Sequence record: OR067838.1
Source of the DNA: Escherichia phage KKP 3954
DNA length: 64,000 nt
Direction: 5' to 3' (one strand)
This document shows positions 7,198 to 46,298 of the stretch, one piece after another; the stretch's first letter is position 1; every line of letters starts with the position of its first letter. The translations under genes and the position numbers were made by a program. The notes under the pieces were generated by a model. It was not told the DNA's origin. It made no database searches and saw only the letters and a list, made by a program, of their open reading frames with translations.

Positions 7198-7276
7198 TGG
7201 AGGCGGGAATTGGATTTGAACCAATGATCTCCAGCATATGAAACTGGCGAGGACGACCAGACTCCTCTATCCCGCT
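7198..7276 (-). tRNA. tRNA-Met (anticodon CAT)
   Basis: Manual cloverleaf: CCA encoded, acceptor GGCGGGA/TCCCGCT, T-arm ATTGG-ATTTGAA-CCAAT, anticodon loop rc TTCATAT; long D-loop. Confidence 0.6.
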
Positions 7277-7280
7277 ATCA

Positions 7281-7352
7281 TGTATCCCGTGCTGGATTCG
7301 AACCAGCGTCACAATAAATTGTGGATCTCTTATCCTGTAAGTCTAACGGGAA
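7281..7352 (-). tRNA. tRNA-like element, no canonical anticodon arm (possible pseudo-tRNA)
   Basis: Perfect T-arm GCTGG-ATTCGAA-CCAGC and 6/7 acceptor complementarity, but no 5-bp anticodon stem found by hand. Confidence 0.25.
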
Positions 7353-7354
7353 AC

Positions 7355-7428
7355 TGGTTGTTTCGACAAGAATCGAACTTGTGTCTCACGATTATCAGTC
7401 GTGGGTTCTACCATTGAACTACGAAACA
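7355..7428 (-). tRNA. tRNA-Ile (anticodon GAT)
   Basis: CCA encoded; acceptor TGTTTCG/CGAAACA; T-arm ACAAG-AATCGAA-CTTGT; anticodon stem CACGA/TCGTG, loop rc CTGATAA. Confidence 0.7.
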
Positions 7429-7434
7429 TTTAAT

Positions 7435-7511
7435 TGGTCGGAATTGCAGGATTCGAACCTGCGACCCTACGCTCCCAAAGCGTATGCTCTACCAAACTGA
7501 GCTAAATTCCG
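7435..7511 (-). tRNA. tRNA-Pro (anticodon TGG)
   Basis: CCA encoded; acceptor CGGAATT/AATTCCG; T-arm GCAGG-ATTCGAA-CCTGC; D-arm GCTC-TACCAAACT-GAGC; anticodon stem TACGC/GCGTA. Confidence 0.75.
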
Positions 7512-7516
7512 TTATA

Positions 7517-7592
7517 TGGCTGGTCTGTCTGGATTTGAACCAAACCTACGACAGTCAAAGTGTCGTGTGCTACCGGACTACACTACAAACCA
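7517..7592 (-). tRNA. tRNA-Gln (anticodon TTG)
   Basis: CCA encoded; T-loop ATTTGAA; anticodon stem CGACA/TGTCG, loop rc CTTTGAC; one mismatch each in T-stem and acceptor. Confidence 0.6.
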
Positions 7593-7690
7593 ATAAATCA
7601 TTTAATGAAGGGCAACCAGAAGAAGTGTGAGAGAAGGAGAAAACCATGAGTAAAAGAGAAAGTTTTCTGGCAACCCTTTATTAAATAATT

Positions 7691-7764
7691 TGGAGCGTTC
7701 TACGAGGATCGAACTCGTGCCGCCGACTTGGAAGGACGGAATGCTACCGCTACACCAAGAACGC
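7691..7764 (-). tRNA. tRNA-Gly (anticodon TCC)
   Basis: CCA encoded; acceptor GCGTTCT/AGAACGC; T-arm ACGAG-GATCGAA-CTCGT; anticodon loop rc CTTCCAA; one mismatch in anticodon stem. Confidence 0.55.
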
Positions 7765-7775
7765 CCTATATATTT

Positions 7776-7805
7776 ACTATACTACATTTTACTATTTGTT
7801 GTCAA
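7776..7805 (-). promoter_or_regulatory. sigma70-like promoter upstream of tRNA-Gly
   Basis: Minus strand TTGACA-N18-TATAGT, placing the start site a few nt before tRNA-Gly. Confidence 0.4.
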
Positions 7806-8077
7806 GACTTTTATTGATTGGGACAGTGACGAGTATCCCGTTGGGTGACTAGCCCTACGTTCGGTAAGCTAACTTAAAATAATACAAAACCAAAGTCAAA
7901 TATTATTCTTCGTTGCTGTCGATGGGAGAGCCGCTTCTCATTTTGCCCCATCCAACCCTACTCCGGTCAAGTTTCGGGTGACTCTTTTTGTGATCAACAC
8001 AATACTAAGAACACTGTCTTTCGAGCAGACCTTGTGCACAGGAACGACGATCAATCACAATGCTCTTAATGTTGTGT

Positions 8078-8152
8078 TGGTGCTCCCACACTGAATCGAA
8101 CAGAGATCCACGGATTACAAAACCGTTGTAATAGCCATTATACTATAGGAGC
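8078..8152 (-). tRNA. tRNA-Thr (anticodon TGT)
   Basis: CCA encoded; acceptor GCTCCCA/TAGGAGC; T-loop AATCGAA; anticodon loop rc TTTGTAA; single mismatches in T and anticodon stems. Confidence 0.6.
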
Positions 8153-8158
8153 AATGCT

Positions 8159-8235
8159 GGGACTCGGCAGGATTCGATACCTGCAATTCCAGAAGCCTAT
8201 TGGCGACTGGGGGTTTACCTTAACTCTACAAGTCC
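8159..8235 (-). tRNA. tRNA-like element, unresolved fold
   Basis: T-arm-like GCAGG-ATTCGATA-CCTGC (8-nt loop) and acceptor-like complementarity GGACTCG/CAAGTCC; no canonical anticodon arm found by hand. Confidence 0.25.
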
Positions 8236-8242
8236 ATAATTC

Positions 8243-8328
8243 TGGCGATGAGTATAGGATTCGAACCTATATTGTTCTTTCGAACACGGATTAACAGTCC
8301 GCCGCTTAAACCGTTCAGCCAACTCATC
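8243..8328 (-). tRNA. tRNA with anticodon GTT (Asn-type) and an atypical 15-nt variable region
   Basis: CCA encoded; perfect acceptor GATGAGT/ACTCATC; T-arm ATAGG-ATTCGAA-CCTAT; anticodon stem ACGGA/TCCGC, loop rc CTGTTAA; extra GTTC-TTTC-GAAC hairpin. Confidence 0.45.
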
Positions 8329-8334
8329 TTAATT

Positions 8335-8422
8335 TGGTGGTGAGTGATGGAGTCGAACCACCCGAATCGCAATGATAACAGATTTACAGTCTGCCCCGCT
8401 ACCCCTACGGAATTAACTCACC
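8335..8422 (-). tRNA. tRNA-Tyr (anticodon GTA)
   Basis: CCA encoded; acceptor GGTGAGT/ACTCACC; T-loop AGTCGAA; long variable arm (class II); anticodon loop rc CTGTAAA. Confidence 0.7.
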
Positions 8423-8553
8423 TAAATACTAATATTTAAATTCTTTTTAAAATAGCCAGTGTTCGCACCACTAACTATGAGTTATCGGTAAGATGGTGGG
8501 GGGCTATCTTCCGAAAGTTTACTCTATTAAAGTAAGCTACATTAAAAAGAACT

Positions 8554-8639
8554 TGGCGGTAGATGTAGGACTCGAACCTACACGCCGTTTCCGACTACAG
8601 TTTAGCAAACTGTCGTGGCTACCATTTCACCAATCTACC
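8554..8639 (-). tRNA. tRNA-Ser (anticodon GCT)
   Basis: CCA encoded; acceptor GGTAGAT/ATCTACC; T-arm GTAGG-ACTCGAA-CCTAC; anticodon stem ACAGT/ACTGT, loop rc TTGCTAA; long variable arm. Confidence 0.75.
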
Positions 8640-8644
8640 TAATC

Positions 8645-8735
8645 TGGCGGAAGGAGGGAGAGTCGAACTCCCAAGGCTCTTTCAAGCTCGGCGGTTTTCA
8701 AGACCGTTTTCGTCGCCACATCGATTTGCCCTTCC
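8645..8735 (-). tRNA. tRNA-Ser (anticodon TGA)
   Basis: CCA encoded; T-arm GGGAG-AGTCGAA-CTCCC; anticodon stem GCGGT/ACCGT (G-U), loop rc CTTGAAA; long variable arm. Confidence 0.7.
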
Positions 8736-8969
8736 ATACTTATAATCTAACATAAAATAATGATTGTTGTCAATACTTTTTTAAAACATTTTACCATGAA
8801 TGGTGACTCCACCAACCCCCGTTCTCCACGAACGGTGCTCTTCGAGCATTTATGTCTTCTAATATAACCGTGGCCTTTGTTTATAATGTCTGACATACTT
8901 GCCTCATTCTCTGCCACCATGATCAGTAGTGGGTTCAAATCACTTGAGCTAATTCATGTTAAAATGTTC

Positions 8970-9044
8970 TGGTGTCTTTACAAGGAATCGAACCTTGACT
9001 AAGAGTTTAGAAGACTCCTGTGCTATCCATTACACCATAAAGAC
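8970..9044 (-). tRNA. tRNA-Arg (anticodon TCT)
   Basis: CCA encoded; acceptor GTCTTTA/TAAAGAC; T-arm CAAGG-AATCGAA-CCTTG; anticodon loop rc CTTCTAA. Confidence 0.7.
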
Positions 9045-9046
9045 GT

Positions 9047-9121
9047 TGGTGGCCCTGGCTGGTTTCGATCCAGCTACCTATCGGTTATGAGCCGACAGCT
9101 CTCCCATTGAGCTACAGGGCC
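9047..9121 (-). tRNA. tRNA with anticodon CAT (second copy; initiator Met or lysidine-Ile)
   Basis: CCA encoded; acceptor GGCCCTG/CAGGGCC; T-arm GCTGG-TTTCGAT-CCAGC; D-arm GCTC-TCCCATT-GAGC; anticodon loop rc CTCATAA. Confidence 0.7.
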
Positions 9122-35039: not shown

Positions 35040-35543
35040 TTGATGGGTGTAGCAACAATAGCTATCGGAAGAAGCGGTATAGATGAGTGCTATCAAACGG
35101 GACTCGTAAAACCTAACGAATTTCGTCAAATTTGTGTAAACCATATTGAAAAAGAGATTGCTCTTACTTTAGAGAATATGACCCTCCGAGATAAACTGGA
35201 AATGTTTAAATGTTGGTGTCTAGGAGAAGATTGGCTTTTAAACCATTTTCAAGAACTTTCTGATAGTAAAGAAAGCTTGTTTGATTGTATAATAGGAATA
35301 GCTGGCTCCGATCCTAGCCTTCTGCACATAACAGAAGAAGAGGCGAAGTTACTGTTCTTAAGTAATTTGTTTAATAAGAAAGCACTGCTTGTTCGTGATT
35401 GCAGTGATCTTCTTAATAACCCGCTCGCAACGTCTGATCAAATTTTTGTTGACAAAGAGACACTACGTGCGATAGAATACATCTGCAAATATGTGAATGG
35501 CGGGAAAGCGGTTCTTAAAACATTAACAGAGGAGGAAGAATAG
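35040..35543 (+). CDS. hypothetical protein
   Basis: 167 aa; AGGAGG RBS. Confidence 0.55.
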   Translation: MMGVATIAIGRSGIDECYQTGLVKPNEFRQICVNHIEKEIALTLENMTLRDKLEMFKCWCLGEDWLLNHFQELSDSKESLFDCIIGIAGSDPSLLHITEEEAKLLFLSNLFNKKALLVRDCSDLLNNPLATSDQIFVDKETLRAIEYICKYVNGGKAVLKTLTEEEE

Positions 35544-36235
35544 TGACGACAATTATTGCAACCAAAAATAAGATTTTGAGTGACGGTAAGGTAACTTTTG
35601 GTGGACGTGTAGATTCTATTAATTTCAAAAAGGTCCGAAAAATTGGAGATTACCTTGTAGGTGGTGCTGGTCGTCTGACCTCCGTGCTTTCTTTCTTTCA
35701 ATGGTTTGAACAAAATCTACAGTGCGAAGCAGCACGTGATGCTGTCCCTGGTTTGATGATTCACTCTGATCCAGATAAAGAAGATGAAGAGTTTATTGCA
35801 CTTGTTGTTCATCCTGACGGACGTATTTTCCTGCACGAAGGTAACAACCCAACACGTGCATATCCGATTGATGAAGAATATTATGCGGTAGGAAGCGGGT
35901 CAGACTTTGCTTTAGCTGCTCTTGATGCAGGGGCAACACCAGAACAGGCTATGGAAGTAGCTAAAAAGCGAGATGCTTTTTCTGGTGGTGAAACATTTGT
36001 TGAAGAACAAGATGAGATTATTGAATTAACAGACGATGATTTAGAAAACTTCTCCAAAGAAGAATTGATCAATCTTTTGAAATTCGGTAATCCCTACGGT
36101 GAAGAAGAACCTCGTAACGTGGCAGGTAACGAGGCGGATACTGAAGAAAAATCTGTTGCAGAAAACAACTTGACTTCTAAATCTGAAAATATTAATCTCG
36201 TAAATGTGGCGGATTTCGAAGGAACCGCTATTTAA
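35543..36235 (+). CDS. HslV-like (proteasome beta-type, Ntn-hydrolase) peptidase
   Basis: 230 aa; GTG start giving M-TTIIA (N-terminal Thr nucleophile); GGAGRLTS and AVGSGSDFALAALDAG resemble HslV; acidic C-terminal extension. Confidence 0.6.
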   Translation: MTTIIATKNKILSDGKVTFGGRVDSINFKKVRKIGDYLVGGAGRLTSVLSFFQWFEQNLQCEAARDAVPGLMIHSDPDKEDEEFIALVVHPDGRIFLHEGNNPTRAYPIDEEYYAVGSGSDFALAALDAGATPEQAMEVAKKRDAFSGGETFVEEQDEIIELTDDDLENFSKEELINLLKFGNPYGEEEPRNVAGNEADTEEKSVAENNLTSKSENINLVNVADFEGTAI

Positions 36236-36241
36236 CAAACT

Positions 36242-36255
36242 GCCCCTTCGGGGGC
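36242..36255 (+). terminator. GCCCC-UUCG-GGGGC hairpin
   Basis: Stem-inverted variant of the recurrent UUCG hairpin, right after the HslV-like gene. Confidence 0.4.
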
Positions 36256-36280
36256 ATTTCTTAAACATAGGAGATTAATA

Positions 36281-36716
36281 ATGTTACAAGTTCCTGCTAA
36301 GTTTGTTGAAGGCGCTATCCACTCTTACCGTCAAACATGTAAGAGGGCAAGAAACTGTTTAGATGGTCTGGTGGCAAAAACCTATACTGTTGAAAAAGAA
36401 AAAACGTTGGTTTGGCAAAGATGTTTACGAAGTTAATATTTTTGGTGAACATAAACTAAACCACGATACTCCTGAAAACATGTTAGAAATATTTCTAAGA
36501 GATGACAAAATATCTCCTATGGATTACCAACTTTTAAAATTTTATGATTCTTCTTTGGCTATTGATAAGTTTGTTGAAGATATTCTGTCTAGAAAAACAG
36601 ATAAAAACACTTATCCTCTAGAGGCTGATCAAATAGGATTATTAAACGAGATTTCATCCTTTAAAGAGTTGGATAATATTACAAAAGAGGAGATTTTAGA
36701 TGGCATTAGATTATGA
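36281..36716 (+). CDS. hypothetical protein, frame-disrupted at a poly(A) run
   Basis: Strong RBS TAGGAGATTAATA-ATG at 36281 (frame open to about 36436); track ORF 36363..36716 in another frame; frames overlap across AAAAAGAAAAAA. Confidence 0.45.
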
Positions 36717-37209
36717 TCGCCCAACGAGCGATTATTATCCGACACCGCAAAAAGCAATCAACAGTTTGTTTAGTGTTATAGATTTCAAAAATCTAAAGGA
36801 AGAAGGTTGGGTTTTTGCAGAACCTTGTAGAGGTGAAGCTGAAGCGATTTATCGCCATTTTCCTGAAGGTTCAGAATATTGTGAACTTGAAGAAGGTAAA
36901 GATTATTTTAGTCATGAATGGGAAAATCGTCCCGACATTATAATCACAAATCCTCCATTCAAGTTAGCAATGGAGTTCTTGGAAAAGAGCTTAAAAGAGG
37001 CGGATGTTTGTATTTATCTTCTTCGGTTGGGCTTCTTGGAGTCAAAGAAACGACGAGAGTTCCATCAAAAGAATCCACCAACAAACCTTATAGTCCTTTC
37101 AGAACGGCCTTCGTTTGTTGCAGGTGGAACAGATAAGACAGCATACGCTTGGTATGTATACGACCCAAAGAATCGTTTGGGCCTCTCTCAACCATTTTAT
37201 TTTGTTTAA
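36700..37209 (+). CDS. DNA N6-adenine methyltransferase (small phage Dam-like)
   Basis: 169 aa; catalytic IIITNPPF (NPPF motif IV); AGAGGAG RBS. Confidence 0.55.
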   Translation: MALDYDRPTSDYYPTPQKAINSLFSVIDFKNLKEEGWVFAEPCRGEAEAIYRHFPEGSEYCELEEGKDYFSHEWENRPDIIITNPPFKLAMEFLEKSLKEADVCIYLLRLGFLESKKRREFHQKNPPTNLIVLSERPSFVAGGTDKTAYAWYVYDPKNRLGLSQPFYFV

Positions 37210-37707: not shown

Positions 37708-37902
37708 ATGCAGAGCGGAGAAGAACTTTTAGAGAAACAATTCTCAACGCGTCAACAAGCTTTAAGTTATATGGTTTTTCTAAGCAATCTTGATGTGAAT
37801 GAGATACTTTTACGGCGCGAAGGTAATTTCTGGAGCGTTAAATACCATGCAACAAGATCTGTAATCTACCTAGAAGAGGCGGAATTCTCTTTGGTAGAAT
37901 GA
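37708..37902 (+). CDS. hypothetical protein
   Basis: 64 aa; AGGAGGG RBS; preceded by hairpin plus T-run. Confidence 0.45.
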   Translation: MQSGEELLEKQFSTRQQALSYMVFLSNLDVNEILLRREGNFWSVKYHATRSVIYLEEAEFSLVE

Positions 37903-37916
37903 TCCGAGGAGTAGTT

Positions 37917-38489
37917 ATGCGTTCAACTTTCACTGGCAAAATAAACGCTGGTTTAATTTTTACCGCAGTAAGCATTCTTAGCAAAAAGTTTAAAGTTGTT
38001 AACTTACCTGTGTGTGTCGATTTCGATCATGTCTTTGATCCTTCGAACCCCACTCGTTGCATAGTAAGGAGTAATGTTGAAAACCCAACAGAAAATCTTT
38101 TTTATGTAACAAAACCATCTCAAAGCATACTTAACCAGGTTGAGGCGAAATTGATACCTAACGGTAAATATTACTCCTTTTTACCTTGCAAGTCGGTTGA
38201 AGTAGAGAATAGCAATACTTTCGCTAACAACTTGTCTGTATTCGTTTTCTTTGTTTCGCACGAAGATGAAACAGATGAAATGGTAGCAACAGTGAGATCA
38301 CTTTATGACTCTTTAGGGGTTGTTTATAGACAACAAGTGTGCGAAAATAATAAAGCTTGTGTAGATTTCATTATCAACGGTATTTGTGTTTGTAGAGTAG
38401 AATCTTTTTGGCTGCACGATACATATGTGACTGTAGCAGAGGTTATATCTGAACCAAAATTTAGTCATGCGGTTTCGTTAATAATTTGA
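37917..38489 (+). CDS. hypothetical protein
   Basis: Track ORF 37899..38489; GAGGAG RBS supports start MRSTFTGK. Confidence 0.5.
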   Translation: MRSTFTGKINAGLIFTAVSILSKKFKVVNLPVCVDFDHVFDPSNPTRCIVRSNVENPTENLFYVTKPSQSILNQVEAKLIPNGKYYSFLPCKSVEVENSNTFANNLSVFVFFVSHEDETDEMVATVRSLYDSLGVVYRQQVCENNKACVDFIINGICVCRVESFWLHDTYVTVAEVISEPKFSHAVSLII

Positions 38490-38499
38490 GGAGGAAGGA

Positions 38500-38829
38500 A
38501 TGGAAATTACTACAGAACAAGCCCTTATCGACGAGGGTCGTAAAATCTTAGAAAAGCATTTAGGGGAGATTCATAAAACTCCTGGCTATTTGGGTTGGAG
38601 AATTGTTGAAGCTGTAGATTTCCTTCCTCGTAACAGTAAAAGCGTCGAAATGCGATCTCTTTTCTTATTAGTAAAGGTGGATGGGGATACACCTTTTAAA
38701 GATGCCGCAGAGCATATTGAAAAAGTTGAAGAGAAAGCTTATGCAGAATTTGCCGATCTTGTTTTAGAACAAAAGATTGAAGGAAAGGTGAATATTTTTA
38801 TTTTCTTAGATTTTGAGGAGGATAAGTGA
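38500..38829 (+). CDS. hypothetical protein
   Basis: 109 aa; GGAGGAAGG RBS. Confidence 0.55.
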   Translation: MEITTEQALIDEGRKILEKHLGEIHKTPGYLGWRIVEAVDFLPRNSKSVEMRSLFLLVKVDGDTPFKDAAEHIEKVEEKAYAEFADLVLEQKIEGKVNIFIFLDFEEDK

Positions 38830-39569
38830 TCATACATAGAGAAATTACTGTTAAAAGCGATCAAGATCTTTTTATAATTGGAGATCTACACGGTTGTTAT
38901 AATTTGTATGAAAAAGGAAAGGCAAAGTTAGGTATCCGAGATACAGATGTAGTTGTATCTTTAGGAGATCTTACTGACCGTGGAAAGCAAAACTTTCGTT
39001 GTGTTTTAGAATTTACTCGTAAACACAATCGCTACGCTATTCGTGGAAATCATGAAGACATGATGATTAAAGGTATGCTGGAAGGAGATCGTAGCTACTT
39101 CGAGTGTTGGTATCAAAATGGAGGATATACAGTCCTTGAAGAATGTGGTGAAGAAGGAGCTACAGCCTTAGCAATGATGACAGAAGATTTACCTGTTGTT
39201 CTCATTGTTAACTACAGAGGCATGAAACTTGCGTTTATTCATGGTGGGTATCCATCTTCTTTGGAATATCTCCCTGTAACAGATATTCCAGAATACACTT
39301 TGAAGATGACAAAAACACAGGAAAACCGTTTTGCTGAAGCACTTATGTGGGACAGAGATATGGTGGACTGTGCTAAAGAGGGAATGAAACTTCCTGTTGT
39401 GATGGGTGTGGACTATGTGTTTCATGGACACTCTTATGTAAAAACACCTATTATCAATGCGAATCGTGTTTATATGGATACTGGATCTGTGTTCAATAAT
39501 AACTTAACATTTGCTTATTTCGATATGGACGGTGGTCTTCAATTTTATTCAACTCTTGAGGAGGATTAA
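38826..39569 (+). CDS. Ser/Thr protein phosphatase (PPP family, lambda-phosphatase-like)
   Basis: 247 aa; GTG start; motifs GDLHG, GDLTDRG, RGNHE. Confidence 0.75.
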   Translation: MIIHREITVKSDQDLFIIGDLHGCYNLYEKGKAKLGIRDTDVVVSLGDLTDRGKQNFRCVLEFTRKHNRYAIRGNHEDMMIKGMLEGDRSYFECWYQNGGYTVLEECGEEGATALAMMTEDLPVVLIVNYRGMKLAFIHGGYPSSLEYLPVTDIPEYTLKMTKTQENRFAEALMWDRDMVDCAKEGMKLPVVMGVDYVFHGHSYVKTPIINANRVYMDTGSVFNNNLTFAYFDMDGGLQFYSTLEED

Positions 39570-39877
39570 TGTATAAGATTACAATTATTCAAAGTGTAGG
39601 TAATATCCGTAAAGAAGTTATCTTAGAAACAGAAGATGTTAATCTTGTTCGTGAGATTGTTTTTAAGGAAGATAACCTGCAAGCTGTAGAATCGGATGCA
39701 CCGAATCTTATGGTGGATCAAGAATATTCTGAACTTCGTCGTATTTTTGAAGAGATTCAGAAGAAAGAAACACAACCTACCATAAAACCTTTTGGTCCTT
39801 ATGATCCGAGCAATCCTAGCAGTCCTTGGATCATGAGAAATACAGAACCATATACACCTTTTGAAATTACTTGCTGA
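39569..39877 (+). CDS. hypothetical protein
   Basis: 102 aa; ATGA-type overlap. Confidence 0.5.
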   Translation: MYKITIIQSVGNIRKEVILETEDVNLVREIVFKEDNLQAVESDAPNLMVDQEYSELRRIFEEIQKKETQPTIKPFGPYDPSNPSSPWIMRNTEPYTPFEITC

Positions 39878-39884
39878 GGTGTTT

Positions 39885-40466
39885 ATGGCAGAATTGTTTT
39901 ATACGGGAGTTGGAAGTAGAGACATCTCCGAAGAAGAGTGGGCTTTGATGGTAGGCATAGGGAAATGGCTTTCCAACCTTGGGTTTAAATTAAGGTCTGG
40001 GAAGGCAGAGGGTAGTGATTCTGCTTTTGAAACAGGTGTCCAAGAGTCTGAAAATCCTACTAACAAGGAGATTTATGTTCCTTGGGAAAATTTCAAAGGT
40101 AATCAGATTCCAGGTGATGTTATTGTTCTTGCAAAACCAGATACAATGAACTATGCTATCTCTGTGCAATGGATCAAAGATGTTCACCCAGCTTATGAAA
40201 AGCTTAAGCAGGGTGCTAGAAAATTGCACCAACGTAATGTGCATCAGGTGTTAGGTAAAGATTTGGAGAATCCTGCTCCATCATGTTTCTTGTTGGCTTG
40301 TGCCGATACTGATAAACACGGAGATGCAAAAGGCGGAACAGCTACGGCTTGGAAGATAGCTAAAGCAAATAATGTTCCTTGTTTAAACATTCGTGGGAGA
40401 ACAAAACAAGAGATTTATGATTTTCTACGACCTTTGGTAATGAGGGCAATAACAAGTGATTCCTAA
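39885..40466 (+). CDS. DprA/SLOG-like Rossmann-fold protein
   Basis: Track ORF 39861..40466; GAGGTG RBS supports start MAELFYTG; YTGVGSRD then LRSGKAEGSDSAFETG resembles DprA/Smf. Confidence 0.4.
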   Translation: MAELFYTGVGSRDISEEEWALMVGIGKWLSNLGFKLRSGKAEGSDSAFETGVQESENPTNKEIYVPWENFKGNQIPGDVIVLAKPDTMNYAISVQWIKDVHPAYEKLKQGARKLHQRNVHQVLGKDLENPAPSCFLLACADTDKHGDAKGGTATAWKIAKANNVPCLNIRGRTKQEIYDFLRPLVMRAITSDS

Positions 40467-40968
40467 ACGTAAACGTGGTGAACAAAGAACAAACTTGGCA
40501 GAAATCTTAGATTACAACATGGTTAATGATGTGACAAAAGAAATTCTCCCTGTTGTAGAAGATATTCTTCGTAGAGGGTTACGATTCTGCTCGGATCGGG
40601 TGCATTTCATGTGGACACATAAAAGTGATTCCGCTTTGAATTTCTATCCTTTAGACTACACTCTGAACAATGCAGAGATGAAAGATATTAACAAATATTT
40701 AATGGGGTATAAAGATATAACCGAAACTGTTCTTGGAGAATTGGCAGAAATCTTGGCTAACGATATCCTTAGAAATATTAATAAGGCTCTTGACAGAAGC
40801 CCAGAAGGAGTAGTAGTATCTTTTGCTGTGCCAGATATGGTTAAATATGAGTCTACAATACCTAATAAAGCTTATGCCTTTCTTCGGAGAGACGTTCGTG
40901 GAAATGTGTTGGAGATGGAGTCAAACTACAAGATTGAGGAGGTTTTATGGCAGAGTTCGGATCAGTAA
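40456..40968 (+). CDS. hypothetical protein
   Basis: 170 aa. Confidence 0.5.
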   Translation: MIPKRKRGEQRTNLAEILDYNMVNDVTKEILPVVEDILRRGLRFCSDRVHFMWTHKSDSALNFYPLDYTLNNAEMKDINKYLMGYKDITETVLGELAEILANDILRNINKALDRSPEGVVVSFAVPDMVKYESTIPNKAYAFLRRDVRGNVLEMESNYKIEEVLWQSSDQ

Positions 40969-41237
40969 CAAGTTTTGAAAGTAACTTCGTTACAGCTTGG
41001 GAAGCTTGGGATGAAATGGGTGTTGGGGAACTTTATTTTTACAATGTAACATTACGTCCAGAGTATGCTTACCTGGTACCAGAAGGAACAGTTCAAATTG
41101 GCATGTATTTGTCTTCTCAAGACGGTGTTGTTCAATTTGAGTTTTATTCGAACACAACGGACAACGAATTTACATATCGTGCATTTCATGTCACCATGTC
41201 TTTAGGAGAGGAGAAATTTTATGACGACCAAGTTTAA
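40947..41237 (+). CDS. hypothetical protein
   Basis: 96 aa. Confidence 0.45.
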   Translation: MAEFGSVTSFESNFVTAWEAWDEMGVGELYFYNVTLRPEYAYLVPEGTVQIGMYLSSQDGVVQFEFYSNTTDNEFTYRAFHVTMSLGEEKFYDDQV

Positions 41238-41418
41238 AACAGTAGAAGAAGCCGTAAAAGCAGCTTATGAGGCTTTAGCGGAAGCAGAGCAGTTAGCAGA
41301 TGAGACTGGTAAAGGTTTCCGTTTCTCCCCTGAATATGGGATGGGTGGCTATTATGATCCAGAAGATGAAAATGAGAATACTGGAACAAATTGGCATCCA
41401 TCTTCTTTAAGTTGTTAA
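41221..41418 (+). CDS. small protein, C-terminal W-x-SS-x-C family member 1
   Basis: 65 aa ending NWHPSSLSC. Confidence 0.5.
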   Translation: MTTKFKTVEEAVKAAYEALAEAEQLADETGKGFRFSPEYGMGGYYDPEDENENTGTNWHPSSLSC

Positions 41419-41429
41419 TAGGAGGTAAA

Positions 41430-41705
41430 GTGGGAATCGAAGATATCAAAGGTTATAAGGCGCATACTGACGATAAGATTGGCAAGGTTAACGCTATTAA
41501 AGATGCAGAAGAGCGTTTAGGTTTAATCTTCAAAGCTTTAGAGGAAGAGTATTGTGAAGCATATCATGGGTCTTTTGACGGCACAGAAAAAGAATTAGAT
41601 CTTGCATACGAACGTATTGATCAAATCCGTTGTGCTATTAAACATTTAAAAGAAGCTAGTATGTGGGCTTGTCGTTCAGTTTTCCAACCAGAGGAGAAAT
41701 ACTAA
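41430..41705 (+). CDS. hypothetical protein
   Basis: Track ORF 41391..41705; TAGGAGG RBS supports GTG start at 41430. Confidence 0.45.
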   Translation: MGIEDIKGYKAHTDDKIGKVNAIKDAEERLGLIFKALEEEYCEAYHGSFDGTEKELDLAYERIDQIRCAIKHLKEASMWACRSVFQPEEKY

Positions 41706-41923
41706 TGAGTGATCGTAATGTTGAAGAATTAACTGAAAAAGCCCAAGCTATTATGGCTTTAGTGGACGAACTTACAAAAGAAGCTGAAGATGCTGGTTTT
41801 GGTCTTAGTTTAGAAAATGACGCAATCTGTTTTGAAGATTGGCAATCCTCTTCTTGTTATGGTGAAGGTGATGATGGTTTCGTCGTTAATTCTCAAGGCG
41901 TTTGGCACAGTAGTAGCTGTTAA
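41705..41923 (+). CDS. small protein, C-terminal W-x-SS-x-C family member 2
   Basis: Track ORF 41663..41923; GAGGAG RBS supports start MSDRNVEEL; ends GVWHSSSC. Confidence 0.5.
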   Translation: MSDRNVEELTEKAQAIMALVDELTKEAEDAGFGLSLENDAICFEDWQSSSCYGEGDDGFVVNSQGVWHSSSC

Positions 41924-41932
41924 GGAGAGATT

Positions 41933-42205
41933 GTGGAGTCTGAAGGCGAACTGCTGATAAAAAAGAAAGTTAAAGAGATGGAACAAGCACAAAGAAAGTT
42001 TCGTAAGGAGATTGAAGAACTTTGTGAACAGTTTCAGGAACAAGCTTGGATAGGTGACTACGGTAACGGAGAAACTTATTACCCTACAGGAACGCCAGCC
42101 GCAGATCACTATATTGATTTCATTTGTGAAGATTATGGTGTAGAGTTGGATGAAAATGGTTTAACCACAAGAGGTGTTTGGATCTCTTCTTCCTCAATGT
42201 GTTAG
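41933..42205 (+). CDS. small protein, C-terminal W-x-SS-x-C family member 3
   Basis: 90 aa; GTG start after AAGGAG; ends GVWISSSSMC. Confidence 0.5.
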   Translation: MESEGELLIKKKVKEMEQAQRKFRKEIEELCEQFQEQAWIGDYGNGETYYPTGTPAADHYIDFICEDYGVELDENGLTTRGVWISSSSMC

Positions 42206-42215
42206 TAAATAATAA

Positions 42216-42239
42216 CCCGCTTCGGCGGGTTTTTTTATT
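42216..42239 (+). terminator. rho-independent terminator
   Basis: CCCGC-UUCG-GCGGG hairpin followed by TTTTTTTATT. Confidence 0.65.
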
Positions 42240-42266
42240 GACAGGAATCTGGAAGCTTGATAAACT
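42238..42266 (+). promoter_or_regulatory. sigma70-consensus promoter
   Basis: TTGACA-N17-TAAACT. Confidence 0.5.
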
Positions 42267-42296: not shown

Positions 42297-43240
42297 ATGG
42301 TGTTAATTGGTAGCCGTGCATTGCAAATTCATGCTATGGACATGGGAAAAGACTTGTATCGCCCTTGTGTAGATTTAGATTACCTGTGTATACAGAACAA
42401 GAGTGGGAAGAATTATCAAAAATGTTCTCTCAAGAGGAGTTTGTTGAACTTGTAGAACGTAAAGGAAACAAAGGCCATGTCAAAATGATAGCTGGTGCAC
42501 ATTTGGAATACGATATTGCTTCTCAAGGAGATAGCACAGAAGCTTTGATTAGTTATTGTGAAGATTCTGATGATGTTCGTCGAACTTACGCTGGACATGT
42601 TGTTGCTCCTTTAGATGTGCTCTACCTTCTTAAAATGAGTCATCGTTTTAAAAAGGATAGTCCTCACTTCTTTAAAACTATGAAAGATATTCATTTCATG
42701 CGATCACTAGGTGCAAAGATCCCAGAAAATCTTAAGAGTATTTATGAGTTGCGTGAGAAAGAAACATACACTTACTCTCATCCAAACTTAAACGTGAGAA
42801 GTAAAGACTTCTTTAAAGGTGATGAGGTTCCGTATGTTTATGATCATGACTCTATTCATGAAGCAATCGCAGTAATGGATGCTCCAGCATATAAATCTTA
42901 TATGAAAGATGGAAGTGAAGTTATGACCAGCAAAGAAAAGTTTTTTGCTCAACCAAAACATGTGCGCCTGTTAGGTGTTTATGAAGAAGCGTGCGTTTTG
43001 GCTTTGGAACGTTCACAAATTCCTTTCGGTGAAGAGATCGGAGGTCCAACCCCTAAGCAAAGTTTTATGATGGCTTTATCTAAAGTTTGCACATCTATCA
43101 CTAGTGGTTGGTTTAGGGAATATGCTTGGGAGAACTTTTATATTGTTACTAAACTATATGAAAACATGGGTGAAAACGACTATGTTGAACGTTTTAAAGC
43201 TAATCAACATGTAGTTAAGCCTTTTGAAGGAGGTTATTAA
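42297..43240 (+). CDS. hypothetical protein, frame-disrupted near its 5' end
   Basis: Strong RBS AGAGGAGAAATATT-ATG at 42297 (frame 0, about 52 codons); main 291-aa ORF 42365..43240 in another frame, open from 42314. Confidence 0.45.
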
Positions 43241-45024: not shown

Positions 45025-45498
45025 ATGTTTCAAGTAAATATCAATGTGCATAATAGTTACTCTGATTGTGAAACGTGTGGCTATAATTCATCTAATGTTG
45101 TTCGTATTAGTGGCGATTTAGGAGAAGCTTCTTTTGGAGAAGAAGCAAGTTGCTTTAGTGGTATGGATGCAGAATGGAATGATATTGCACATTGGTTGGT
45201 GAGCAAACTAAAAGAAAAAGAGAAACCATTTCCTACTCTGCTTGATCGTTCTCTTGTAGAAGATGCAGGTAAAGCATATGCAGACTATGCGTATGCAGAC
45301 GGGAAATATTTGGAAGATGATAAGGCTAACCATTTGCTTTATGTTTACTATGAAGCTGAATCTGCCTACGATAATTATTATAGCATGTCTAACATCCTCC
45401 GTCTATTTGCAGAGTTTGATATTTATTTCGAAGTAGAATTTTCAGAAGACGATACTTACGAATATGATTCTTATGATCCATTTGAGGAGGACGAATAA
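45025..45498 (+). CDS. hypothetical acidic protein
   Basis: 157 aa; GGAGGG RBS. Confidence 0.5.
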   Translation: MFQVNINVHNSYSDCETCGYNSSNVVRISGDLGEASFGEEASCFSGMDAEWNDIAHWLVSKLKEKEKPFPTLLDRSLVEDAGKAYADYAYADGKYLEDDKANHLLYVYYEAESAYDNYYSMSNILRLFAEFDIYFEVEFSEDDTYEYDSYDPFEEDE

Positions 45499-46298
45499 TG
45501 CCAAGACGTGTATATTTTATTAGTGGTGCGGGACTAAGTGCTGACAGCGGAATCCAAACATTTCGCACAGAAACAGATTCTGGAAAGGCATTATGGGATG
45601 AATATGATTTAACAGAAGTCTGTGACATTTTCAACTTCCGTGACGGTTATCAGCAAGAACAGGGTATTCCTGATGCTATGGGTGGCTTAGATGTGGAAGG
45701 ATATAACCTCTACCGTAAAACTCACGACTTCTACAATAAACGTCGCGTGGAATTAGAGAAAGTTGACCCGAATCCAGCACATCTTCAGATTGGAGAATGG
45801 TTCGAAAAATACGGTGCAGAAAGGATTATTAACATTACTACTAACGTTGACGATCTATTAGAACGCGCTGGAATCGATAGAGAAGAAATATTGCACGTTC
45901 ATGGTTTCTTGCCAGAAGTTGTTGTTGATAACAAAATTATCAAAGATGTGGGTTACGCAGCTATTGATGTAGACGATTACAAATATGTGAAGCCTAATGT
46001 GGTGTTTTTTGGTGAGAATGCACCACTCTACACAGACATGTATCACAAACTGGATCAACTAACATCACAAGATATGGTTATCGTTGTAGGCTGCTCTAAC
46101 CAAGTAATCAACTTCAACTGGGAACTCTTCCCTGCCCTGAATATTGGGGTTAAGATGGTTGTAGTTAACCCAGGTTTGAATTTTGTAGAACAAACTCTCT
46201 ACGAAGAACGTGGAGTGCTTGTCTACCGAGAGAAAGCAGGAACAGTCTTCAGTGATGAAGGCTTTATCAAAATGGTTGAAGACCATTTAAACAAATAA
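45498..46298 (+). CDS. sirtuin-like (SIR2 family) NAD-dependent protein without zinc ribbon
   Basis: 266 aa; FISGAGLSADSGIQTFR, NPAH, TTNVDDL, HVHG, VVFFGE, VVGCS in SIR2 order; no Cys4 module. Confidence 0.6.
   Translation: MPRRVYFISGAGLSADSGIQTFRTETDSGKALWDEYDLTEVCDIFNFRDGYQQEQGIPDAMGGLDVEGYNLYRKTHDFYNKRRVELEKVDPNPAHLQIGEWFEKYGAERIINITTNVDDLLERAGIDREEILHVHGFLPEVVVDNKIIKDVGYAAIDVDDYKYVKPNVVFFGENAPLYTDMYHKLDQLTSQDMVIVVGCSNQVINFNWELFPALNIGVKMVVVNPGLNFVEQTLYEERGVLVYREKAGTVFSDEGFIKMVEDHLNK

Follow-up and report, generated by a model that had tools for sequence, protein, structure and literature searches.

A lambda-type phosphatase and a minimal DprA-like SLOG protein of a phAPEC8-like Escherichia phage: neighbours in a putative accessory operon, not a dedicated two-gene module

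Escherichia phage KKP 3954 encodes, within the 64,000-nucleotide stretch of sequence record OR067838.1 that was analysed here (the window), a lambda-type PPP phosphatase (PPase) and, with one small open reading frame (ORF) in between, a Rossmann-type protein of the SLOG superfamily. A preliminary description of this DNA had placed a DprA/SLOG-like protein two genes downstream of the phosphatase and had proposed that the two together might bind or destroy a host signalling nucleotide. Both proteins are indeed what they were taken for, and the domain matches on which their assignment is based cannot be due to chance. Their adjacency, however, is a matter of lineage synteny, in Stephanstirmvirinae-like phages plus a few scattered cases, and does not mark a dedicated two-gene module. 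Since the proposed pairing does not hold, the finding itself is ordinary: PPase and SLOG are ordinary members of a counter-defence/accessory block. The names are not new either. The window is of the phAPEC8-like E. coli myovirus type (Phapecoctavirus, Stephanstirmvirinae), with 98-99% identity over the 2.5 kb around the two genes to about 64 phAPEC8-like E. coli myoviruses (such as AV126, nieznany and ESCO13), and RefSeq records of near-identical phages already list a "NinI-like serine-threonine phosphatase" and a "DprA-like DNA recombination-mediator protein".

The PPase gene (38826-39569, + strand) codes for a calcineurin-like metallophosphatase of 247 amino acids, recognised by its motifs and by Pfam, PHROG and PDB matches, and starts with a GTG codon 5 nt behind the Shine-Dalgarno sequence GAGGAG. 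The full PPP motif set is present, with GDLHG at residues 19-23, GDLTDRG at residues 47-53 and GNHE at residues 74-77. In an alignment with 10 diverse relatives, D20, H22, D48, R52, N75 and H76 are unchanged, and the metal ligands H139 and H202 as well as the phosphate-binding R177 are invariant; aligned to lambda phosphatase, these last three are the counterparts of its H139, H186 and R162. Profile matches are strong for Pfam Metallophos (E 2.7e-13) and, among the PHROGs, for the "NinI-like Ser/Thr phosphatase" phrog_246 (E 1e-74). Lambda phosphatase itself (PDB 1G5B) is matched at E 9e-27, residues 10-230 against 10-214. The NCBIfam models PrpA and PrpB give scores of 95 and 83 bits, with equivalog cut-offs, at 326 and 332, far above these. 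The likeness to the NinI/ORF221 phosphatase of lambda thus comprises full-length homology, all PPP motifs and metal ligands, and a similar size class. The window enzyme is 26 amino acids longer, owing to an insertion at about residues 145-175 and a C-terminal extension, both of which it has in common only with Stephanstirmvirinae-like and jumbo-phage relatives, and it belongs to a virulent 150-kb myovirus, whereas the lambda enzyme comes from a lambdoid phage, where its gene lies in the nin region.

To judge from its sequence, the PPase is a standard lambda-type enzyme. By analogy, it would be a Mn2+-dependent phosphomonoesterase or phosphodiesterase that works independently of SLOG and has phosphoproteins or 2',3'-cyclic phosphate ends as its substrates. 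As lambda phosphatase cleaves 2',3'-cyclic nucleotides (PMC2190708), an unusual substrate is possible; nothing in the analysis hints at one. Among phage lambda-type phosphatases, none was found in a literature search to be described as an anti-defence factor.

The SLOG gene (39885-40466, + strand) encodes a stand-alone protein of 193 amino acids in the DprA-like branch of the superfamily, assigned with phrog_768, AlphaFold 2 (AF2), Foldseek and motifs. Its start is the ATG at 39885, which follows a GAGGT Shine-Dalgarno sequence by 5 nt and is backed by homologues beginning M..LFYTGVGSR and by the RefSeq annotation in phage nieznany; the mechanically delimited ORF began at TTG 39861. The ORF carries YTGVGSRD and LRSGKAEGSDSAFETG and matches phrog_768, "DprA-like", at E 5e-62. 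Single-sequence searches of Pfam, NCBIfam and PDB yielded nothing significant, the score against Pfam DNA_processg_A (PF02481) being 12.7 bits under a gathering cut-off of 29.6, and profile and fold methods were required. Fifty-six homologues were gathered, and a profile (alignment A1) was built from 35 homologues and the window protein. DNA_processg_A is matched at E<=1 by 32 of the 36 aligned sequences (best 2e-6, N-terminal motifs only), "SLOG cluster4" is matched by seven of them, and DprA chains are the sole matches of the profile in the PDB, weak ones that span the first two motifs.

Structure prediction gives the same picture. The AF2 model has a mean predicted local distance difference test (pLDDT) value of 94.5. 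Foldseek listed the 50 PDB matches with the best E-values, and every one of them is a SLOG domain, from DprA, ShosA, MoCo carrier protein, ThsA, LOG or the N-terminus of TRPM. At the top stand DprA of H. pylori (HpDprA, 5mll; E 2e-5, template modelling (TM) score 0.55) and ShosA (8zva; E 2.8e-4), followed by the MoCo carrier protein, the SLOG domain of ThsA and LOG. The modelled three-layer alpha/beta fold agrees with that of solved SLOG proteins. Invariant in the family are GxGSR, placed after E12-18, as well as RSGxAxGxD, RNxxQxxG and GGTxxA; motifs of its own are PWxGF, which follows E69-73 and is invariant or almost so, HPxW and LHxRNxHQxLG. The window protein belongs to a DprA-like branch of the superfamily that is minimal in its make-up; it is not a bona fide DprA, and it is not a LOG enzyme either.

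If PPase and SLOG formed a functional couple, they might be expected to travel together. Eighty related SLOG loci were taken from viral contigs, out of 439 matches, and grouped at 60% identity into 32 clusters (loci and proteins are numbered with L and P below). By tblastn and hidden Markov model (HMM) searches, a PPase is present within 6 kb of SLOG in 17 loci, and 63 have none, even by HMM. These 17 comprise the 12 closest relatives of the window, L062, and four loci (L031, L039, L050 and L056) with PPases of a different subfamily, only 23-27% identical to that of the window. When clusters are counted instead of loci, the PPase, near 5 of the 32, is equalled by the large subunit of ribonucleotide reductase (5), dCMP deaminase (5) and Macro (5) and surpassed by an HslV-like peptidase (6) and PhoH (8). 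In the reverse test, SLOG is found in three of the 80 best viral PPase loci, all three close relatives, and in none of the lambdoid NinI loci and jumbo-phage PPase loci among them, even though the jumbo-phage PPases are nearer to the window enzyme than the lambdoid ones. A PPase-SLOG fusion was not seen among 33 long members of the SLOG family. In the window lineage, the immediate upstream neighbour of SLOG is in every case not the PPase gene but the small ORF between the two, orf102 (39569-39877, + strand; 102 amino acids; phrog_15301 E 4e-55, function unknown, no Pfam match). It holds this position in 13 loci (L001-L012 and L062), even where further ORFs separate off the PPase, and its stop codon overlaps the Shine-Dalgarno sequence of the SLOG gene.

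These counts bear directly on the cooperation that had been suggested. In a fuller form of it, SLOG would bind a host nucleotide signal and the PPase would hydrolyse the signal or remove a ribose phosphate, taking the role that DUF4326 or a Macro "phosphatase" has in other phages. Such a scheme would be in keeping with the shared putative operon, in which one small gene lies between the two, and with an apparently independent juxtaposition in L050, where a PPase 27% identical to that of the window, a 67-aa ORF and SLOG follow each other. PPases also lie 1-5 kb upstream of SLOG in L056, L031 and L039, and in L062, from a distant relative of the window lineage, PPase, DUF4326 and SLOG fall inside 2 kb, with the DUF4326 free-standing between the other two (L062:4893-5249, E 5.5e-20). 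DUF4326, which occurs fused to members of the SLOG family, is predicted to be a ribose-phosphate phosphatase (PMC9503650), and in Pakpunavirus a Macro domain annotated "phosphatase" is encoded two small genes upstream of SLOG. From the enzymatic side, the activity of lambda phosphatase on 2',3'-cyclic nucleotides can be added, and ADP-ribose is hydrolysed by ADPRibase-Mn, a member of the same metallophosphatase superfamily (PMC3407115). Against this stand the low frequency of the association in either direction, the lack of fusions and an active site of the unmodified lambda-phosphatase type, and cooperation between the two proteins is regarded as improbable.

What the SLOG protein might do on its own is better approached through its family, which is delimited here by the profile described above. 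The family has 6,431 representatives at 50% identity (E<=1e-3) and is matched in 1,468 of 50,697 phage records (~3%) and in 439 viral contigs. Among the phages with a match are Pakpunavirus, Vequintavirinae and Stephanstirmvirinae, T4-like phages of Klebsiella and Acinetobacter, and jumbo phages. The majority of members are stand-alone proteins of 170-195 amino acids. Among the 33 longer ones, drawn from the 150 best-scoring representatives and not from the whole family, recognisable fusions are with NADAR (6), DUF4326 (6-7), MazG (1), an unnamed domain of about 130 amino acids (6) and extra SLOG domains in giant proteins (2). One of the NADAR-SLOG fusions (P0061) comes from a contig of only 1.2 kb. 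The unnamed domain, with the motif FVFGSNLAG.HG.GAA...AIPTKD...GCGLAG, is fused in P0095, P0157, P0174, P0181, P0187 and P0195 and free-standing at L068:3695-4162; Pfam gives no match for it, and hhalign shows only a weak similarity (probability 63%) to DUF7831, which is itself encoded directly upstream of SLOG in L056. Genes for Prs-like, NAPRTase-family (NadV) and Macro proteins precede SLOG in Pakpunavirus-type loci, and a Macro neighbour is present in 12 of the 80 SLOG loci.

The same fusions have been described for viruses by Iyer, Burroughs, Anantharaman and Aravind (2022), who predicted that viral SLOGs, experimentally uncharacterised, sense or process ADP-ribose derivatives of host immunity (PMC9503650). 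The present family has in common with their set the stand-alone SLOGs of large caudoviruses, the NADAR and DUF4326 fusions, and the Macro and NAD-salvage neighbours; they place most viral SLOGs in a YpsA-like clade, whereas the window family scores nearest to DprA. The interpretation in the preliminary description, apart from the pairing with the PPase, is partly supported: at the level of the family, the fusions with NADAR, DUF4326 and MazG and the Macro, NadV and Prs neighbours are independent evidence that this SLOG clade handles nucleotide/ADP-ribose-type substrates in phage-host conflict. The fusion partners can also be read in another way. In later work, NADARs were found to strip ADP-ribose from guanine in single-stranded DNA (ssDNA; PMC11543638, PMC11257639), and gp30.3/AdfN of T4 was found to counter DarTG1; this makes an ssDNA-binding, DprA-like reading of the fusions plausible too.

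Such a reading is invited by the nearest solved relatives. DprA/Smf (PDB 5MLL, 4LJR, 3UQZ) and ShosA (PDB 8ZVA, 9VZO) are the top fold and profile matches, and the five Rossmann-domain motifs that E. coli Smf shares with HpDprA come in the same order as the invariant motifs of the phage family, VVGSR, SGLARGID, RRNRIISGLS and SGSLVTA in Smf/DprA standing against GVGSR, SGKAEGSD, QRNVHQVLG and GGTATA in the phage protein. With hhalign, the N-terminal 41 columns of the family and no more were aligned to E. coli Smf; the remaining motifs of Smf/HpDprA were matched by inspection and by a sub-threshold second HMMER stretch against HpDprA 5mll (-0.7 bits). R52 and R143 of HpDprA are essential to ssDNA binding, and the same holds in ShosA for ssDNA binding and antitoxin function (PMC12961424). 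They correspond to R12 and R117 of SLOG (both numbered from ATG 39885), which are invariant, while the counterpart of the third ssDNA arginine of HpDprA, R170, is K157 in the window protein and variable across the family. Of the architecture of DprA and ShosA, only the Rossmann-type core is retained: the phage protein begins 5 residues ahead of strand 1, stops after the last Rossmann helix, and has neither the SAM domain nor the DML1 or alpha14 C-terminal element.

The main rival to a nucleotide ligand is that the SLOG protein is a true DprA-type ssDNA binder. It would be either a minimal recombination mediator, by which RecA would be loaded onto phage ssDNA or modulated there, or a mimic of ShosA that silences ShosTA abortive infection. 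The collinear motifs and the two essential arginines would fit this, and so would the ADP-ribosylated ssDNA on which NADAR partners work, a median isoelectric point of 8.3 in the family and a Lys/Arg-rich tail on one member (P0054). The window protein itself is neutral, at 6.9, and the isoelectric point is not decisive for DNA binding. As a ShosA mimic in particular, the protein was not retained as a separate candidate: the PADLOC match to ShosA is weak (E 0.021) and limited to common DprA motifs, and the idea is kept only as one form of the DprA-type alternative. The missing domains, the variable third arginine and the sub-threshold DNA_processg_A score stand against ssDNA binding, and the partners fused to the family are nucleotide and ADP-ribose enzymes, unlike recombination proteins; MazG and DUF4326 fusions together with NAD-salvage neighbours suggest small nucleotides. 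Moreover, elsewhere in the SLOG superfamily the arginines of RN and GSR serve to bind the phosphate of mononucleotides. On balance, ssDNA binding of the DprA type is thought unlikely, though less so than the cooperation with the PPase.

The other solved relatives bring in the mononucleotide side. LOG phosphoribohydrolases (PDB 5WQ3, 5ZBK) and the SLOG domain of ThsA from Thoeris (PDB 7UXS) have the same fold and the same architecture of the Gly-rich nucleotide-binding loop, with weaker matches to the phage protein (E 1e-3 to 2e-2, TM 0.40-0.50). The PGGxGTxxE motif of LOG enzymes corresponds to KGGTATAWK in the window protein, so that K157, a position that varies across the family (K/L/M/E/R/N), takes the place of the catalytic glutamate. 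As this glutamate is not conserved, binding or a family-specific chemistry is likelier than phosphoribohydrolysis of the LOG type.

A phage protein that may be related is ORF83 of phiDruSM1, annotated "Smf/DprA"; when it is deleted, the phage plates less well on hosts that carry AVAST type III (Ojima et al. 2024 preprint; EVADES preprint). In an AlphaFold 3 model of its complex with AMP (EVADES preprint), the counterparts of R89 and N90 in the LOG enzyme Cg1261 are the AMP-site residues R115 and K116, and the best PDB match of ORF83 in that preprint is LOG, not DprA. Like the SLOG family, ORF83 is a small phage Rossmann protein with a DprA/Smf label and DUF4326 as a fusion partner: in its model, AMP is surrounded by an R-N pair and a Thr, and homologues from amoeba viruses have a C-terminal DUF4326. 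The family HMM has no match in the Queuovirinae genomes 9g (first 50 kb of 56.7 kb) and Seurat. A link between the family and ORF83 was set aside, both of these genomes, 9g over its first 50 kb, being without a family member. What can be taken from the ORF83 model is that, since RN and GSR arginines bind mononucleotide phosphate elsewhere, these arginines do not separate ssDNA from nucleotide ligands.

We consider the chances to be somewhat better than even that PPase and SLOG are independent passengers of one accessory operon for host takeover and counter-defence, and that the SLOG ligand is of the adenine-nucleotide or ADP-ribose type. SLOG would then be a minimal DprA-like domain from a very large phage family, in which the invariant arginines of GSR and RN, together with the loops SGxAxGxD and GGT, would hold the phosphate-ribose part of an adenine nucleotide or of an ADP-ribose-type ligand; alternatively, the ligand might be a single-stranded nucleic acid that bears such a nucleotide or ADP-ribose group. 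The protein would act early in infection, by binding or processing NAD+/ADP-ribose-derived products of host immunity or RNA repair. It could do so by binding as such, or by a family-specific chemistry involving D45, H101, H115, N118 and Q121 (numbered, again, from ATG 39885), and the fused or neighbouring partners found in relatives (NADAR, DUF4326, MazG and Macro) would carry out the remaining chemistry. The gene is worth attention: the family for which it stands, present in about 3% of sequenced phages, is among the largest phage protein families still uncharacterised, and all contextual clues, that is NADAR, DUF4326, MazG, Macro, NAD salvage and the presence of an Acb2 homologue in the operon, point to nucleotide/ADP-ribose counter-defence. 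For the study of DprA-like SLOGs as sponges, glycohydrolases or ssDNA binders, a phAPEC8-like phage able to plate on E. coli K-12 would be a handy system.

Several points weigh against this preferred reading. The fold likeness to all solved structures is only moderate, with TM values of about 0.5. The nearest of these structures, DprA and ShosA, bind ssDNA rather than mononucleotides, so that the conserved arginines suit either kind of ligand. The context is that of the relatives: the fusion counts come from the best-scoring representatives, the window protein is itself stand-alone, unlike its fused relatives, and HMMs for NADAR, DUF4326, Macro (Pakpunavirus type), DUF7831 and the FVFGSN domain find nothing in the window. 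Finally, the ends of the operon have been set by consensus scans alone.

A more elaborate possibility is that SLOG always needs a phosphoesterase partner, which would be supplied in non-homologous forms as DUF4326, as a Macro Appr-1''-phosphatase or as a PPP enzyme, in a two-step capture and dismantling of an ADP-ribose-derived immune signal or of an ADP-ribosyl adduct on ssDNA. The partner may differ by lineage: DUF4326 by fusion, Macro in Pakpunavirus, and PPP in Stephanstirmvirinae and L050. Candidate targets may be, for instance, a gcADPR isomer, ADP-ribose phosphate or a DarT product. We give this only a slender chance. If true, such a pathway would be a new enzymatic route of anti-defence, and a phage PPP phosphatase would for the first time have a nucleotide as its physiological substrate.

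The surroundings of SLOG in other phages raise the question of RNA. In rV5-like loci (L163-L166), PhoH is encoded directly upstream of SLOG, a CCA-adding enzyme about 3 kb and RlaP about 6 kb downstream; in the jumbo-phage loci L167-L169, the CCA-adding enzyme alone is near. SLOG adjoins RNA ligase 2 in the T4-like Citrobacter phage Ursula (L174), and an RNA ligase is near in Pseudomonas phage phiMK (L175); in the Krischvirus MIZ4, an Escherichia phage, SLOG occupies the same position as in Ursula, beside head genes, with no adjacent RNA ligase annotated. Both genes might accordingly belong to a toolkit for the repair of RNA or tRNA damage that counters anticodon nucleases, the PPase healing 2',3'-cyclic or 3'-phosphate ends like a Pnkp module and SLOG taking up a nucleotide by-product or the broken RNA. 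Besides these neighbours (the CCA-adding enzyme at 2-3 kb over all) and a tRNA cluster in the window, this would be in line with matches of the PPase to bacterial Pnkp (TIGR04075, E 2.6e-5) and to a PHROG made up of phosphatase-RNA ligase fusions (phrog_8238, E 6e-10), and with the 2',3'-cyclic phosphodiesterase activity that lambda phosphatase and CthPnkp have in common (PMC2190708). However, no RNA ligase or polynucleotide kinase was found beside the PPase/SLOG pair in the window, the associations with RNA genes are once more at the level of lineages, the Pnkp match is weak and covers the generic metallophosphatase core only, and SLOG domains are without an experimental tie to RNA ends. This explanation, too, is judged quite improbable.

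In the window, long co-directional gene blocks are visible in the GC skew. Between about 36.26 and 42.23 kb, some 16 genes of the + strand are packed start-to-stop between two terminator-like hairpins, a region of about 6 kb that is considered a putative accessory operon holding PPase and SLOG. The hairpins were found by consensus scan only. The first, at 36241-36256 (+ strand; TGCCCCTTCGGGGGCA followed by TTTCTT), probably marks the upstream limit of the transcription unit, and the second, at 42214-42231 (+ strand; AACCCGCTTCGGCGGGTT followed by TTTTTATT), probably closes it. Directly after the latter lies a promoter-like site, TTGACA-17-TAAACT (42238-42266, + strand). The unit contains an NPPF methyltransferase-like gene, small ORFs, PPase, orf102, SLOG, a lineage-restricted ORF of 170 amino acids and a homologue of Vs.4/Acb2.

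This last gene (41430-41705, + strand; 91 amino acids) lies 1 kb downstream of SLOG, inside the same putative operon. Its product matches Pfam Acb2_Tad1_hairpin (PF24729) at E 2e-16, with 60.4 bits against a cut-off of 27, and PDB 7UQ2 "Vs.4" at E 1.8e-28 over 89 of 91 residues; in phage nieznany, gp063 is annotated "vs.4 gene product". By these matches it is a clear homologue of Vs.4 of T4 and of Acb2, a cyclic-oligonucleotide sponge with an anti-CBASS role, and thus of a family that binds host signalling nucleotides. Acb2 is counted among the phage "sponges", proteins by which second messengers of immunity are sequestered (PMC12043709). A homologue is present in none of the 80 related SLOG loci, which is the typical behaviour of an accessory anti-defence gene. 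The idea that the block harbours a binder of nucleotide signals holds good for this gene, which lies outside the segment first singled out.

Among the remaining genes of the unit, the lineage-restricted ORF (40456-40968, + strand; 170 amino acids; phrog_8569 E 4e-65, no Pfam match) has a start that overlaps the SLOG stop by 11 nt, the two being translationally coupled. Its homologues form only two near-identical clusters among 5.8 billion proteins, and its AF2 model is unusable (pLDDT 44). A small orphan methyltransferase-like gene (36700-37209, + strand; 169 amino acids; phrog_799 "DNA methyltransferase" E 3e-59, motif IITNPPF, no Pfam match) accompanies SLOG in 28 of the 80 loci, oftener than does the PPase. 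A 196-aa protein encoded at 37899-38489 (+ strand) is labelled "histidyl tRNA synthetase" in PHROGs (phrog_4806), a label without Pfam support. Around the Acb2 gene lie small tandem ORFs (41221-41418, 41663-41923 with an annotated start at 41705, and 41933-42205, all on the + strand), the products of which have an acidic helical N-terminus, a C-terminal W-x-(S)SS-x-C motif (NWHPSSLSC, GVWHSSSC and GVWISSSSMC) and no Pfam match; judged by these features, the three may be a paralogous family.

Upstream of the first hairpin, an HslV/proteasome-like peptidase with an acidic C-terminal tail is encoded at 35543-36235 (+ strand; phrog_1040; Pfam Proteasome E 1e-5), and the transcription unit that follows the second hairpin and the promoter-like site opens with a gene for a DUF7275 protein (42365-43240, + strand; E 7e-76). 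An Rfam scan of the window returned tRNAs only. They form a cluster on the - strand (7198-9121), in which ARAGORN found 10 tRNAs and missed an eleventh, detected by Rfam at 8338-8422 (39 bits). The window also encodes, 5 kb downstream of SLOG, a Sir2-family protein (45498-46298, + strand; Pfam SIR2 E 1.4e-20). The Thoeris effector ThsA unites these two domains, Sir2 and SLOG, in one protein, whereas in the window they are encoded as separate phage genes.

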